64,000 bases of DNA from assembly GCA_965200245.1 (NCBI GenBank), contig CBDATS010000004.1:480001-544000 (forward strand), in the 5' to 3' direction. The position numbers and the translations under genes are program-made. Positions 45,752 through 50,308 of the stretch are shown here, piece by piece (position 1 is the stretch's first letter; every line of letters starts with the position of its first letter). The notes beneath the pieces were generated by a model. The model was given only the letters and a program-made list of their open reading frames with translations, was not told the DNA's origin and did no database searches. Source of the stretch: a bacterium (GTDB lineage Bacteria; UBA8248).

Positions 45752-47001
45752 ACCCCAGGGATTCGAAAGACTTCTCCGTCCTCATTCATTACGATGAAAT
45801 CGGTCTCAAGGGAAAAAACCGCCCGCTTTTCATCGAGCGTCTTTCCAGAAGAATCGAACGTGCAGCGTCCCTGTTTTGCGAGGCGAGAATCAAAAAACGT
45901 ACGGGGCGGCTGATCCTCCAAACGAGAGGCCTCAAAGACAGCGACGCCCTGATTGAGGCGATCGGCAAGGTATTCGGCATTGCTTATTTTGCACGTGCCC
46001 AAAGGGTTCCACTCGACCTCGATGCGGTGGCGCAAACGGCACTCGAGATGATCGCTCCCCTCAAAACCGAAAGTTTCCGGGTGCGAACACGAAAATCGTT
46101 TCCGACTACGCCCGTCAGTACAAGGGAGTGGGACAGGACCATCGGCGCCAGGATTCAGGCCAGAAGACACCTGCCCGTCGATCTGGAACATCCGGGGCTT
46201 ACGGTTCACATTGAGGTCATTCCGAAAGAAGCCTGGGTGTACGTGGAGAAAATTCCGGGTCCTGGCGGCCTGCCTGTCGGCTCGCTCGGCAGGGTGGCAG
46301 CACTCCTCTCGGGCGGCATCGACTCACCCCTGGCCGCCTGGCGCATCATGAAGCGCGGCTGCGAAGTGGTGTTCATCCATTTTCATGGCGCGCCCTATCT
46401 CAGCCGCGCATCCGCCGACAAGGCGAAGGATTTGACCCACGTTCTGAACAGTTACCAATTGGGCAGCAGATTCTATCTGGTTCCGTTCGGAAACCTGCAA
46501 AAGGAGATCGTTCTCGCCACGCAGCCCGAATACCGCGTCGTTCTCTACCGCCGGTTCATGGCGCGCATCGGCGAGCATATCGCCGGGTTCGAAAACGCCC
46601 GCGCCCTCGTCTCGGGAGAAAGCCTAGGCCAAGTGGCGAGCCAGACGCTTCAGAATCTCGCCGCCATCGAAGATGCCATCCGGATACCGATTCTGCGGCC
46701 CCTGATCGGCATGGATAAAGACGAGATAATCGAAGGGGCGAAAAGGCTCGGCACGTTCGAGATTTCCATCGAGCCCGACCAGGATTGCTGCTCGCTGTTC
46801 GTTCCCAAGCACCCCGCCATTCGCTCCCACGCGAGACACCTGCGCGGGATAGAAGCCCGCCTGCCCGTTCCGGAAATGATCGACAAGGTAATCCAGGAAA
46901 CCGAAATCATCGATTTCGACGCAGGAGGCCGAACCAGGAAATGTTCTTTCGCCGAAATTCATCCCGCCCCCGACGAGATGGCCATATCGCCGAATGCGTA
47001 G
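45748..47001 (+). CDS. thiI: tRNA 4-thiouridine synthase ThiI (no rhodanese domain)
   Basis: EIGLKGKNR, THUMP region, LSGGIDS PP-loop, GQVASQT, RPLIG; GTG at 45748. Confidence 0.93.
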   Translation: MNPRDSKDFSVLIHYDEIGLKGKNRPLFIERLSRRIERAASLFCEARIKKRTGRLILQTRGLKDSDALIEAIGKVFGIAYFARAQRVPLDLDAVAQTALEMIAPLKTESFRVRTRKSFPTTPVSTREWDRTIGARIQARRHLPVDLEHPGLTVHIEVIPKEAWVYVEKIPGPGGLPVGSLGRVAALLSGGIDSPLAAWRIMKRGCEVVFIHFHGAPYLSRASADKAKDLTHVLNSYQLGSRFYLVPFGNLQKEIVLATQPEYRVVLYRRFMARIGEHIAGFENARALVSGESLGQVASQTLQNLAAIEDAIRIPILRPLIGMDKDEIIEGAKRLGTFEISIEPDQDCCSLFVPKHPAIRSHARHLRGIEARLPVPEMIDKVIQETEIIDFDAGGRTRKCSFAEIHPAPDEMAISPNA

Positions 47002-47342
47002 ACAATCGGGCGGATACACATCTCTCCGGGCAGGTCGCGATCTGACCCCACCGGAATTGCCGGGCAAATCAGGGAAAACAGGGCACCCCATCACCCGATT
47101 CGGAGAGTGGCAACCCGTGAATGATGCCGCCGACAGCGGCGCAAGTTGCTCGTTTTGGAGAGGTCACGGGTTGTCTGAAAATGTTTTCCAGATCAGCAAT
47201 TCACGCCGAATGAACATGCTATCACGCCATCGGTGAAACGTTTTTCCTCTCATTTTCCAAACCAACGTCTTACCTGGACTCAGGCCTAGAAAGAAAAGTT
47301 GCGGATAATTCCATTTTCCGCCTATGGTGGTATGCAACGACG

Positions 47343-47906
47343 TCAGTCTGTATTCGTGATTCCTTCCAACTCGAGGTTTTCCCCGTTCAGATCGACGGTA
47401 CTCGTGAGCGGAACCGCCGCCTGTACCATCTGTTCTGCGTAGCAGCCTTGTTTCGCAAGCCGAATAATGTTCAGAATTTTCTCTTTCGAATCATTCGATT
47501 CAACCTTGAAATGCGTACGCACATGCCGGCATCCTGAGTTCACGTCGCCCTTCAGGACGGACCCCTTCAGGTAATAATCGAATTCCACACGGCAGGTGGC
47601 TTTCTCGAAGGTTGTTTTCGTCATATGAGCGTACCGCCCAAGCTGTGTCAGGAGTCAGAATCCGACTCCCATGGCGATGTAAGTGAGAGGTTGCGGATAC
47701 CTGTCCTCTCCACCGATGCGAGGCGGCTCGTCGCTGAAAACTTCGAAATGCCGGAATCGCCCGATTTTCAATTGTCCATCGTCCATGGTCTCGGTCTCTG
47801 CGAGCATGGTGATCTCATAACCGTCTTTCGGCAGTTCGGGCTTATCGATTGGCCGTTCGCCAGGCACGGTGCTCTCATGCCAGGGATAATTGACGCTTTC
47901 CACCAT
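47343..47906 (-). CDS. OsmC-family protein, probable selenoprotein (in-frame TGA at 47655-47657)
   Basis: ORFs 47655..47906 and 47343..47624 share one frame and are separated by a single TGA: SDEP..GG....P.PLTY...GVGF*LLTQLGRYA; second Cys in GCYAE. Confidence 0.82.
47626..47640 (-). promoter_or_regulatory. putative bacterial SECIS hairpin
   Basis: mRNA UGGGCG-GUA-CGCUCA (6-bp stem including one G-U); the loop starts with G, 21 nt after the UGA. Confidence 0.6.
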
Positions 47907-47975
47907 GTTTGATTGTCCTCCAGGGTTGGGACGTGAAAGATTCCATTCCCGAAAATGATAGTCAACAGGGATACT

Positions 47976-48647
47976 TTAATCCCATTTCAGTACACGGATG
48001 TAACCCTCCTGTGGAATCTGGACGATCGCCTCCAGGCGTTCCTCTTTTTTGTGCATCTGGATGGTTTTGAGATGCGCATACGCCTCCCAGAGCATGTGGC
48101 GAAATGTGTATTCGAGGTTGAAATGAAACAAATCCTGATCGTCAGAGTCAATCCACACGCCCGTGCGATGGGCCTTGAGGGTGACGTTTTCGCGCCACCT
48201 GCGAACGTCTTCGCTGGTTCCCGGTCGGATCATTCCTCTCGGCACACGCTCTGTGATGTTTCTCCCGTTCCGTATCGACTCAGTCGTCTCAGTCCCCAAC
48301 ACCTCCCAGGCGAGGGCGAACGAATCGCGCATAACGCCGATAAGGTCTTGCACTTTCGGATAATATTTGTCTTTCATCATTCGCCCGTCGAAGCGCTTCA
48401 AGAGTGATTCATCGCGTGGAAGCGTGTCGCCGAATAGAATCGCACCCCAGCGAATCAGTAGCCAGCGGTAGGGCAGCGACGCTACGTGACTTACCTGATC
48501 CTGTATCGACCACAGCCCCCAACTCTTTTCCTCCCTCGTTCTACGCAGCGTCTCCTCTGAGAGATCATTCGTCTCTACCTCATACAAATCAGCGACTTGC
48601 AAGATTTCCGGGAAAAGCGTACGCGCTGCATTTCCTCGCAATTGCAT
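47976..48647 (-). CDS. DinB-superfamily protein
   Basis: WSIxDxVSH near the N-terminus and RHMLWEAYAH near the C-terminus. Confidence 0.65.
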   Translation of the reverse strand: MQLRGNAARTLFPEILQVADLYEVETNDLSEETLRRTREEKSWGLWSIQDQVSHVASLPYRWLLIRWGAILFGDTLPRDESLLKRFDGRMMKDKYYPKVQDLIGVMRDSFALAWEVLGTETTESIRNGRNITERVPRGMIRPGTSEDVRRWRENVTLKAHRTGVWIDSDDQDLFHFNLEYTFRHMLWEAYAHLKTIQMHKKEERLEAIVQIPQEGYIRVLKWD

Positions 48648-48869
48648 GTTCCTGGTTCCTCCGCCTCAATGTGTATTGCGCCTCGTTCCCTAGCGGAACC
48701 CGACTGAAAAATATTTGGAAAAACTCCGTGAATTTCCTGCAATCACTCTTTGTATGAAATGACGGTTCATCATTTTACGCGCCTGCCCACCAAGCGCTTC
48801 ATTCCTCCAGAAAACCTGCCCGGCTTCGCCTGCATCTCCCAGCCTGAGAAGATGTCCCCCGCATCGGAA

Positions 48870-50012
48870 CTATTTTCCCTGAAGAAGACTGACCGTCCGT
48901 TCCAGTTCATCTTCGGTATTGTAAAAATGCGGCGCAAAGCGAAGAGCGTTGTTCCGGGCGCTAGCGATGACTCTGTTTTCCCGCAGGCGTGCCGCCGCCT
49001 TGTGCGGATCCGGAGATTCGATGCTCACAATAGCGGCGCGCTGTTCCCAGGAACGCGGAGTAAGGATCCTTTCTCCCTGCCTCTCCAACAACTCCATCAG
49101 ACAGGTGGTCAACCGTCTCACGCGTTCCTCTATGTGAACAAGCCCCACCCCCGCCAGGAACTCCACCGAACGTCCAAGCATCCAGAGGCCCAGATAGTTG
49201 GGATTTCCGATCTCGAAGCGATGGGCATCCGGGGCGAGTCCGACCTCCATACGGTCGATCATCTCGCGAACCATACTGGCACGGGCGAAGAAAGGAGGCT
49301 TCATCTCGGGAATCAGGTCTTCGCGGCAGTACAGAAAACCCGTACCCGGCAGACTGAGCAATCCCTTGTGTCCGCCGCAGACAACGATGTCCGCTCCGAG
49401 AACCGGCAGCGACGCCGACAGGATACCGATTCCCTGGATGGCGTCGGTCACCAGAATGATGCCACGCTCACGGCAGACCGCGCTCAGTGCGGGCAAATCC
49501 ACCCGGCAACCTGTCCCGAACGTCACGTAGGAGACCGATACGACGCGCGTTCGCTCATCCATCAGTTCGATTAACGCCTCAGCAGGTGGACAGCCTTCGC
49601 CGCTTCGCGCCCATCGCAACTCGACGCCCCTTTCTTCCAGGCGTCTCCAGGCGTACACCTGGTTTGGATGGTCGGTTTCCGCCTGGATTACGTTGTCTCC
49701 CGCCTTGATATCCAACGACTGCGCGGCGATGTTCAATCCTTCCGATGTATTCTTGATGAACGCGATTGTCCGCGGTGAGACGCCCAGAAGCGAAGACAGA
49801 GAAGAACGGATATCCTCCACGCGCACCCTAGAAAAAGCCTCGCGGACGCCGCGTTCGTTCATCTCCAGCAGGAATTCCGGAATGGCGTCCTGAGCACACT
49901 GGGGCAAGGGTGCCTTGTTGGCGATGTCCAGATAGGTCCAGTTCCGGGTAACGGGAAACGCTTCTCGCAGAGCCTTGAAATCAGGAGCAACCACTGCTTT
50001 TGTTTCGTTCAT
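48870..50012 (-). CDS. class V PLP enzyme (C-S lyase/epimerase-like; no desulfurase Cys)
   Basis: NTSEG, DAIQ, GHKGL, RFEIG, RFAPHFYN. Confidence 0.85.
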   Translation of the reverse strand: MNETKAVVAPDFKALREAFPVTRNWTYLDIANKAPLPQCAQDAIPEFLLEMNERGVREAFSRVRVEDIRSSLSSLLGVSPRTIAFIKNTSEGLNIAAQSLDIKAGDNVIQAETDHPNQVYAWRRLEERGVELRWARSGEGCPPAEALIELMDERTRVVSVSYVTFGTGCRVDLPALSAVCRERGIILVTDAIQGIGILSASLPVLGADIVVCGGHKGLLSLPGTGFLYCREDLIPEMKPPFFARASMVREMIDRMEVGLAPDAHRFEIGNPNYLGLWMLGRSVEFLAGVGLVHIEERVRRLTTCLMELLERQGERILTPRSWEQRAAIVSIESPDPHKAAARLRENRVIASARNNALRFAPHFYNTEDELERTVSLLQGK

Positions 50013-50026
50013 CCTGTATTCTCCCG

Positions 50027-50308
50027 TCACGAATATTCAGAATCGCGTTCTGTCGGTGAAGGAAAATCCATCCTGTGGATCACGCTTTGCGTGTGTCCGA
50101 ACGCCGGGATGACGAGGCTGTGCACTCCGCGCAGCTGATCCTCCGGGCGACAAAACGTCCTGTCGGGGTTTGGTTTCGCATCGTCGAGAAAACCGAGGCG
50201 AATGCCATCGAGCTGAGCGGGTCGCGCGGTTGGACAGACCTTCTTCAGAGGAGTGGGTACTTCCGATGGACCGAAAATCACCAGAGTCTGTCCAATCAAA
50301 GACTCCAC
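50027..50308 (-). pseudogene. possible remnant of a UGSC-type thioredoxin-like (seleno)protein
   Basis: RPAQLDGIRLGFLDDAKPN resembles that family's N-terminus from memory; the U/CGSC motif is absent. Confidence 0.35.

Follow-up and report, generated by a model that had tools for sequence, protein, structure and literature searches.

An OsmC-like selenoprotein gene with an in-frame UGA and a SECIS-type hairpin in a genome of the UBA8248 lineage

Gene content and family assignment of the locus

The window analysed here (the whole stretch of 64,000 nt) carries on its minus strand a gene that appears under translation table 11 as two ORFs, one of 83 aa (47655..47906, minus strand) and one of 93 aa (47343..47624, minus strand). 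When TGA is read as U, both ORFs become part of a single frame of 187 aa that contains one internal TGA (47657..47655), which is the arrangement that an earlier note, made from the letters alone, had proposed for this region. In the read-through protein, U84 occurs in the context PQPLTYIAMGVGF-U-LLTQLGRYAHMTKT and would be covered by the peptide YPQPLTYIAMGVGF-U-LLTQLGR, while the product as a whole reads M1...GVGF-U84-LLTQLGRYAHMTKT...GC155YAE...NTD. The second Cys that had been pointed out in GCYAE is present and corresponds to C155. The features of the locus are as follows.

47343..47906, minus strand: complete OsmC-like selenoprotein gene, 187 aa, with its ATG at 47906..47904, its Sec codon at codon 84 and a terminal TGA stop at 47345..47343
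47655..47657, minus strand: in-frame UGA corresponding to U84, the first residue of ULLT (UxxT), assigned from TGA conservation, Cys homologues and structure alignment
47626..47640, minus strand: SECIS-type hairpin, assigned from RNAalifold, covariation and synonymous entropy
47442..47444, minus strand: codon for Cys155 in GCYAE, a residue that is invariant in 74/74 family sequences, aligns with the second Cys in both 3cje and 2onf and is the candidate for the resolving role
47917..47921, minus strand: GGAGG, a Shine-Dalgarno-like motif that precedes the ATG by 10 nt, apparent from the sequence itself
47976..48647, minus strand: DinB-family gene, 223 aa, 69 nt upstream of the selenoprotein gene

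The data detailed below confirm that the two split ORFs represent one genuine gene, which encodes a small redox enzyme having selenocysteine at the internal "stop".

The product matches the NCBIfam model NF041052 (OsmC_like_Se, "OsmC-related (seleno)protein") with 161.5 bits (E 1.1e-47) for a cut-off of 95, and the match spans the TGA, residues 43-175 being placed on profile positions 12-144 of 144. It also matches the Pfam OsmC family (PF02566) with 46.4 bits when compared to a gathering score of 27.5. Residues U84-L-L-T87 form the UxxT motif, with Sec or Cys at position 84 in 73/74 aligned members and T87 in 71/74. A selenoprotein family of OsmC-like proteins with UxxT occurs in the Sargasso Sea study of Zhang, Fomenko and Gladyshev 2005, in which it is tabulated under COG1765, 'predicted redox protein' (PMC1088965); the motif is also tabulated for OsmC-like selenoproteins in the GOS study of 2008 (PMC2398784) and appears in tables of two reviews (PMC9312934, PMC13188914). 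The family has thus been known since 2005 and has a curated NCBI model, and the gene described here is an ordinary member of it. Overall, the protein very probably belongs to the OsmC superfamily, and more precisely to its OsmC-like / COG1765 (YhfA) branch, with Sec replacing the first active-site Cys and being read via a SECIS hairpin.

Two expectations formulated earlier on the standing of this gene have to be adjusted in this light. The first was that Sec-containing OsmC-like proteins had been predicted in surveys: such surveys do exist, but the family is more than a prediction, as illustrated by the curated model NF041052. The second was that standard pipelines would split the gene or call it a pseudogene. 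Table 11 does split the frame, but NCBI's own pipeline would probably name the gene, since the curated model is available.

The DinB-family gene is found directly upstream of the selenoprotein gene in 22/22 loci of the genus, a count that includes the window's locus, and in 0/8 loci of other genera. Its own Pfam match is to DinB_2 with an E-value of 0.16 only; 11 of 60 database homologues (41-50% identical) carry Pfam DinB_2, one of which is named 'DinB family protein', and the protein atlas gives it a feature score of 0.96 to a DinB cluster. A scan of positions 47000-50300 returned no promoter-like site and 5 terminator-like ones (3.5 expected), none of the latter located between the DinB-family and the selenoprotein genes, and the two are probably co-transcribed. 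Further upstream lies a class-V aminotransferase gene of the SufS/cysteine-desulfurase type, and on the downstream side thiI converges on the selenoprotein gene.

The internal TGA and the hairpin that follows it

The column of the internal TGA was taken from 113 loci (L024-L026, L029-L078 and L089-L148), by counting tblastn matches with E <=1e-8 that span residues 80-100, the window's own gene being counted twice (L026 and L049). The TGA was found at the aligned column in 116/116 matches, down to 34% identity, and L029 gave no tblastn match within these limits. Two other searches agree with this picture. A search of 40 relatives with NF041052 gave exactly one internal TGA in each listed match over the cut-off, and a protein search of 41 genomes of the same family yielded matches in 41/41 genomes, with an internal TGA in 150/150 among the matches listed (3 more are unlisted). 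The terminal stop behaves differently: of 30 orthologous genes, 18 end in TGA, 5 in TAA and 6 in TAG, the remaining one being cut by the end of its locus. Because the terminal stop varies among orthologues, TGA is an ordinary stop in the lineage and only the internal TGA is fixed.

Proteins in which the column is occupied by a standard residue were sought in a collection of 5.8 billion database proteins, where no close full-length relative (above 54% identity) was found. The 13 full-length homologues (44-58% identity) have Cys at the Sec column in 10 cases, with L, W and S occurring once each. In a peptide-pattern scan of the genome collection that allowed C, L or W at the Sec column, and by which Cys-type forms only could be found, 10 loci of 25-49% identity were detected in several phyla. 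The earlier prediction that homologues would show either Cys or TGA in this column is therefore borne out by the relatives (TGA, 116/116) and by most full-length database homologues (Cys, 10/13).

Material from other sources carries the same codon. Contigs from two runs of a second study cover the whole 1.5-kb stretch without any difference, although such near-identical contigs may come from the very source of this DNA. A contig of a metatranscriptome library (47619-47854) bridges the intact TGA, bearing in mind that RNA libraries can contain DNA. The earlier note had made its reading depend on a TGA that is conserved in relatives and supported by reads, and both the 116/116 conservation and the unchanged contigs of the second study and of the RNA library go in that direction. 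RNA-library contigs lie over the selenoprotein gene and are a weak sign of its expression; the upstream gene has none, an absence of cover that is uninformative.

The genome to which the window belongs encodes the complete Sec machinery whose presence had been proposed as a check, with selA, selB, selC and selD all above curated cut-offs. The selA (572.7 bits) and selB (391.9 bits) genes adjoin each other on contig 4 and neither match has an internal stop. The selD match reaches 338.6 bits and itself contains one TGA. Finally, the tRNA-Sec scores 75.9 bits and is called by ARAGORN as tRNA-SeC with anticodon tca.

These data bear on whether the TGA could be a true stop, the locus then being a pseudogene or a pair of small genes encoding 83 aa and 93 aa. 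The splitting of the frame under table 11 would fit such a situation, as would a local hairpin that is not unusually stable (see below), but it is very improbable when set against the TGA and the open frame beyond it being kept in all 116 relatives, a downstream part conserved at the protein level with an invariant C155, the full Sec machinery and the NF041052 match that runs across the TGA from residue 43 to residue 175. A second possibility is that selenocysteine is not involved, UGA being either translated as Trp or Gly under a code altered throughout the genome or passed by leaky read-through. The W found at the column in one database homologue (P0014) could be taken in this sense and itself probably arose when a gene caller translated TGA as Trp. 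This possibility is hardly credible either: the same gene ends in TGA, as do 18/30 orthologous loci, the selA and selB matches are devoid of internal stops, a conserved covarying hairpin lies at the SECIS position and the usual alternative residue is Cys (10/13) rather than Trp or Gly. Judged from these sequence comparisons, selenium would indeed be inserted at U84.

The hairpin described in the earlier note, UGGGCG-GUA-CGCUCA, is present as reported, with a loop starting with G 21 nt after the UGA. Its 5' arm extends over 47640..47635, its GUA loop over 47634..47632 and its 3' arm, CGCUCA, over 47631..47626; one of the pairs is G-U. Counted from the first base after the UGA, the G of the loop is number 21, and counted from the U of the UGA itself, this G and the U next to it are numbers 24 and 25. 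Folding of the single copy gave no support to this structure. With 71 nt, the z-score was +0.54 and 132/200 shuffles folded as well; with 46 nt, the hairpin was the minimum-energy structure (-6.7 kcal/mol) with z 0.00 and 95/200 shuffles as good; and with 26 nt, z was -1.41 with 21/200 shuffles as good. Single-sequence folding was dropped as SECIS evidence because it gave no signal above shuffles.

Comparison with relatives gave a different result. In a gapless alignment of 101 distinct sequences comprising the UGA and the following 45 nt, RNAalifold recovered exactly 6 pairs, joining columns 18-23 with columns 27-32. The covariation score was 0.321 vs a shuffle mean of 0.095 (0/500 shuffles reach it), a control that overstates significance since the sequences are related, and vs 0.099 for the best slid register (8-pair version), a control free of that weakness. 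Double-sided changes amounted to 93 cells for 27.2 expected (8-pair version). The added outer pairs 16-34 and 17-33 were unpaired in 93/101 and 84/101 sequences, respectively, which indicates that the conserved stem consists of six pairs. Three pairs with double-sided changes had the following compositions.

Pair 20-30: CG 55, GC 25, AU 18, GU 2
Pair 19-31: GC 75, AU 17, UA 3
Pair 18-32: UA 56, GC 20, CG 5

Columns 30 and 18 are both wobble positions, the former in an Ala codon and the latter in a Leu/Val codon, so that constraint on the protein cannot account for their covariation with positions that change the amino acid. Within the loop, base U25 never varies, and G24, with which a CGG codon for Arg ends, is conserved in at least 90% of the sequences; the loop is mostly of 3 nt, with 6/101 sequences having a non-pairing closing position and thus a loop of 5 nt. 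In one family member (L127), as judged by eye, the hairpin has to be displaced by one base in order to fit.

The codons themselves point in the same direction. Among 28 orthologues, the synonymous-codon entropy of codons 89-94 was 0.296 bits vs a gene-wide mean of 0.891, and the five lowest-entropy windows of six codons, out of 174, all overlap the hairpin. The GGG, CGG and TAC codons at the hairpin each occur in 28/28 orthologues, while the window's copy has GCU, which forms a G-U pair, where 26/28 orthologues have GCC (G-C). Overall, the check by folding that had been suggested succeeds across relatives, with six pairs and covariation, but fails for the single copy, which is no more stable than shuffles. 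Comparison with relatives thus points to a SECIS-type hairpin clearly beyond what chance would give, and the hairpin model of the family (101 sequences with covarying pairs) is well supported and goes beyond what was known in 2005.

According to the mechanism proposed for this gene, SelB together with Sec-tRNA(Sec) would bind the short hairpin that starts 14 nt after the UGA and that would display the G and U of its apical loop (bases 24 and 25), so that UGA-84 would be read as Sec. At the terminal UGA, which has no such hairpin context, translation would stop.

Fold, active site and putative chemistry

A structural model was computed with AlphaFold2 from the alignment of 74 sequences and had a mean pLDDT of 92.9 and a pTM of 0.87. 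In this model, a long helix of residues 73-95 contains U84, and C155 is found where helix 141-154 meets helix 156-164. The matches listed by Foldseek against the PDB are OsmC/Ohr-type proteins or structural-genomics relatives (2onf, 1lql, 6mjn, 1vla, 6ebc, 1n2f, 1zb9 and others, with E 2e-9 to 4e-6), and the closest solved chain by sequence is 3cje, an 'OsmC-like protein' of 167 aa (family-profile E 9.7e-19). U84 aligns with the first conserved Cys of five solved chains (3cje, 2opl, 9wo1, 1vla and 2onf), meaning that the TGA does fall at the position of the catalytic Cys of OsmC/Ohr proteins, where it had initially been placed by motif.

C155, which follows U84 by 71 residues, belongs to a set of positions that are invariant in 74/74 sequences together with D59, E60, G66, P71, P73, L86, G115 and S116. 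Four others are near-invariant, namely T87 and Q88 (71 of 74 each), R91 (70) and E158 (72). T87, Q88 and R91 occur three, four and seven residues after U84 on its helix and, by this spacing, probably share one helix face with it. C105 was also considered as resolving Cys and was rejected, this position being Cys in just 47/74 sequences.

In the mechanism described for Ohr and OsmC, the peroxidatic Cys is converted to a sulfenic acid and a resolving Cys some 60 residues later then forms an intramolecular disulfide; both proteins require a conserved Arg and a conserved Glu, the latter located ca. 10 residues ahead of the first Cys (PMC5384416). The corresponding Glu was searched for at positions 74 and 75 and is present in 0/74 family sequences, which have L or M at the first of these positions and T/C/S/A/N/G/P/D/H/R at the second; the Glu region of TM0919 (1vla), PLELV, aligns with PLTYI in the selenoprotein. 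The loop before the helix likewise has no conserved Arg, R63 occurring in 42/74 sequences and R69 in 15/74. R91, on the helix seven residues after U84, could stand in for the catalytic loop Arg, and the conserved residues T87, Q88 and R91 of this helix may take over the activating roles.

The protein is a Sec-based two-residue redox enzyme with an OsmC fold. In the proposed cycle, the selenolate of U84, on the long central helix, would most likely attack an oxidised substrate, for which a hydroperoxide is the leading candidate, and would become a selenenic acid. This would be resolved by the invariant Cys155 to give a selenenylsulfide, and some thiol reductant would then regenerate the enzyme. 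Hydroperoxide reduction is the leading guess at the function, with chances that are roughly even. The description of the product as a "Sec-dependent peroxide/thiol reductase" in the earlier note is therefore acceptable for the selenoprotein nature, the OsmC fold and the redox pair, but the term peroxidase exceeds the evidence, given the Glu count of 0/74.

A true selenoprotein could also act in another way than by reducing hydroperoxides, as a thiol/selenol-disulfide oxidoreductase or as a carrier, possibly together with the upstream DinB-family protein. DinB-fold enzymes include thiol-dependent transferases, and the directly adjacent DinB-family gene in all 22 loci of the genus would suit such a partnership, as would the lack of the Ohr/OsmC catalytic Glu in any of the 74 sequences and of a conserved Arg in the usual loop. 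A third, 'Ohr-like' group without these Arg and Glu residues has been described as poorly characterised, with conflicting peroxidase results for one member (PMC5384416), and the COG1765 entry under which the family is tabulated has the neutral name of predicted redox protein (PMC1088965). On the other side, both the redox pair of two residues and a fold of OsmC/Ohr type have been kept, and the DinB-family neighbour is limited to one genus (0/8 loci of other genera) and absent beside the paralogues of the same genome. Replacement of the attacking Cys by Sec is moreover typical of peroxide-reducing enzymes, which also counts against this alternative. It is, on balance, a serious but somewhat doubtful one, and the reading as a Sec-based redox enzyme with hydroperoxide as leading candidate substrate is retained here.

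Occurrence in the phylum and comparison with known systems

Three genes of the window's genome score above the NF041052 cut-off, and a single TGA is present in each. The two paralogues (C5:772119 and C5:487357) have a single TGA at the same column, with a hairpin at the same position, and are 67% and 48% identical to the window's protein. Their stems are GCGCG/CGCGC and UCGCG/CGCGC(A), vs GGGCG/CGCUC in the window's copy. No DinB-family neighbour was found beside either paralogue; by eye, their flanks are unrelated, with flavoprotein-like and 2-hydroxyacid-dehydrogenase-like genes in one case and metallo-beta-lactamase-like and glyoxalase-like genes in the other.

Within this small phylum, a match to NF041052 over the cut-off occurs in 48/51 genomes. 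Among the matches listed, one TGA is present in 150/150 (23 more are unlisted) and no Cys form was found. In the window's genus, represented by 23 genomes, three copies were found in 20, four in 2 and two in 1, the latter being 79% complete. Up to 11 copies per genome were observed in other genera of the phylum, and tandem pairs of selenoprotein genes occur at loci L072, L090, L091 and L114. That this near-universal, multi-copy and Sec-only family would define the lineage as a selenium redox system of its own, with a chemistry unlike that of Ohr/OsmC and with a DinB-fold partner in the genus, is a tentative reading and an unlikely one.

This member of the phylum also appears in sponge metagenome runs. 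A literature search found no relevant paper on selenoproteins of sponge symbionts, as judged by title and abstract, and the words sponge, Nitrospinota and Poribacteria are absent from a 2026 review.

For the biology of the family, these data add little to what was known in 2005. They provide another case in which a genuine selenoprotein gene would be split by gene callers unaware of Sec, and they reveal a gap in the databases, with more than 100 copies in related genomes yet no close full-length relative among 5.8 billion proteins. What remains of interest is the phylum-wide, Sec-only and multi-copy OsmC branch, its missing catalytic Glu and the genus-specific DinB-family neighbour as a candidate partner. 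A phylum that keeps several Sec-only copies per genome would be a good system for testing the uncharacterised COG1765/OsmC-like branch.

The SECIS of E. coli fdhF has a minimal upper stem-loop with G23 and U24 in its loop. The hairpin described here resembles it in being short, in starting ca. 11-14 nt after the UGA and in having G and U in its apical loop (here bases 24 and 25), but differs in its 6-bp stem and its loop of mostly 3 nt, and no conserved bulged U was established.

Compared to the Ohr/OsmC peroxidases (TM0919, 1vla; Xylella Ohr, 1zb9; P. aeruginosa Ohr, 1n2f), the selenoprotein shares the fold, with Foldseek E-values of 6e-8 to 1e-6, and two redox residues located on equivalent elements, which are 71 residues apart here vs 'approximately 60' in these enzymes (PMC5384416). 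It differs by having Sec for the first Cys, Glu in 0/74 sequences, no conserved loop Arg and an N-terminal extension of ca. 40 residues, with a sequence identity of 12-18%. The two Cys of 3cje align with U84 (the one in GC-VMTQ) and with C155 (the one in KKGCF), and this chain differs from the selenoprotein in having Cys where the latter has Sec.

Finally, when compared to the NF041052 family itself, the gene shares the ULLT motif, a UGA at the first active-site Cys, a SECIS hairpin downstream of it and the existence of Cys homologues. It differs in nothing essential, its particular traits being that it is one of three conserved paralogues and that it has a genus-specific DinB-family neighbour.

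Neighbours upstream of the selenoprotein gene

Two genes lying upstream of the gene for the selenocysteine-containing (Sec-containing) OsmC-like protein (window 47343..47906, minus strand) were considered:

Window 47976-48647, minus strand: DinB-family gene, 223 aa, directly upstream of the selenoprotein gene
Window 48870-50030, minus strand: class-V aminotransferase gene, second gene upstream from the selenoprotein gene

The DinB-family gene is found directly upstream of the selenoprotein orthologue at all 22 loci of the genus, including that of the window, versus none of the 8 loci of other genera. A paralogue with 41% identity and a DinB_2 domain (database protein P0072) is encoded on the same contig of this genome. 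The class-V aminotransferase reached no curated cut-off, scoring 146 bits against SufS-type cysteine desulfurases (cut-off 475) and displaying a weaker likeness to the selenocysteine lyase SclA (88 bits, cut-off 525).

Downstream hairpin and sequence variant

Window 47301-47321, minus strand: 5-bp hairpin GCGGA...UCCGC with an 11-nt loop, read from the sequence

This hairpin lies 22 nt past the terminal TGA of the selenoprotein gene and a U-rich run follows it, with which it may form a weak terminator; it is not among the sites returned by a terminator scan of the region because its loop exceeds the limit of that scan. In one contig from an RNA library, a G>A change occurs at window position 47733. 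It is synonymous, falling in the third position of codon 58 of the selenoprotein gene, and is therefore probably a strain variant.

selD and further OsmC-like genes with an in-frame TGA

Contig 8, 72779-73741 (L010): selD match, 338.6 bits
Contig 4, some 55 kb ahead of the window start (L029:1501-1896): fourth OsmC-domain gene with an in-frame TGA

Both loci belong to the genome of the window. The selD match contains one TGA, so this organism's selenophosphate synthetase probably carries selenocysteine too.

Elsewhere in the bacterial family, Sec-containing OsmC-like genes occur as tandem pairs at four loci of other genera (L072, L090, L091 and L114), and up to 11 copies were found in one genome (G051).

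In the fourth OsmC-domain gene, the in-frame TGA occupies the same active-site position as in the selenoprotein gene (AGHAG-U-GLYTLL) and the second Cys is located within NCPIHN. Its product scores 51.2 bits with Pfam OsmC and 60.3 bits with NF041052, the NCBIfam model of OsmC-related (seleno)proteins, which is below the cut-off of 95. This gene may represent a separate Sec-containing OsmC subtype that is devoid of the UxxT motif published for OsmC-like selenoproteins.
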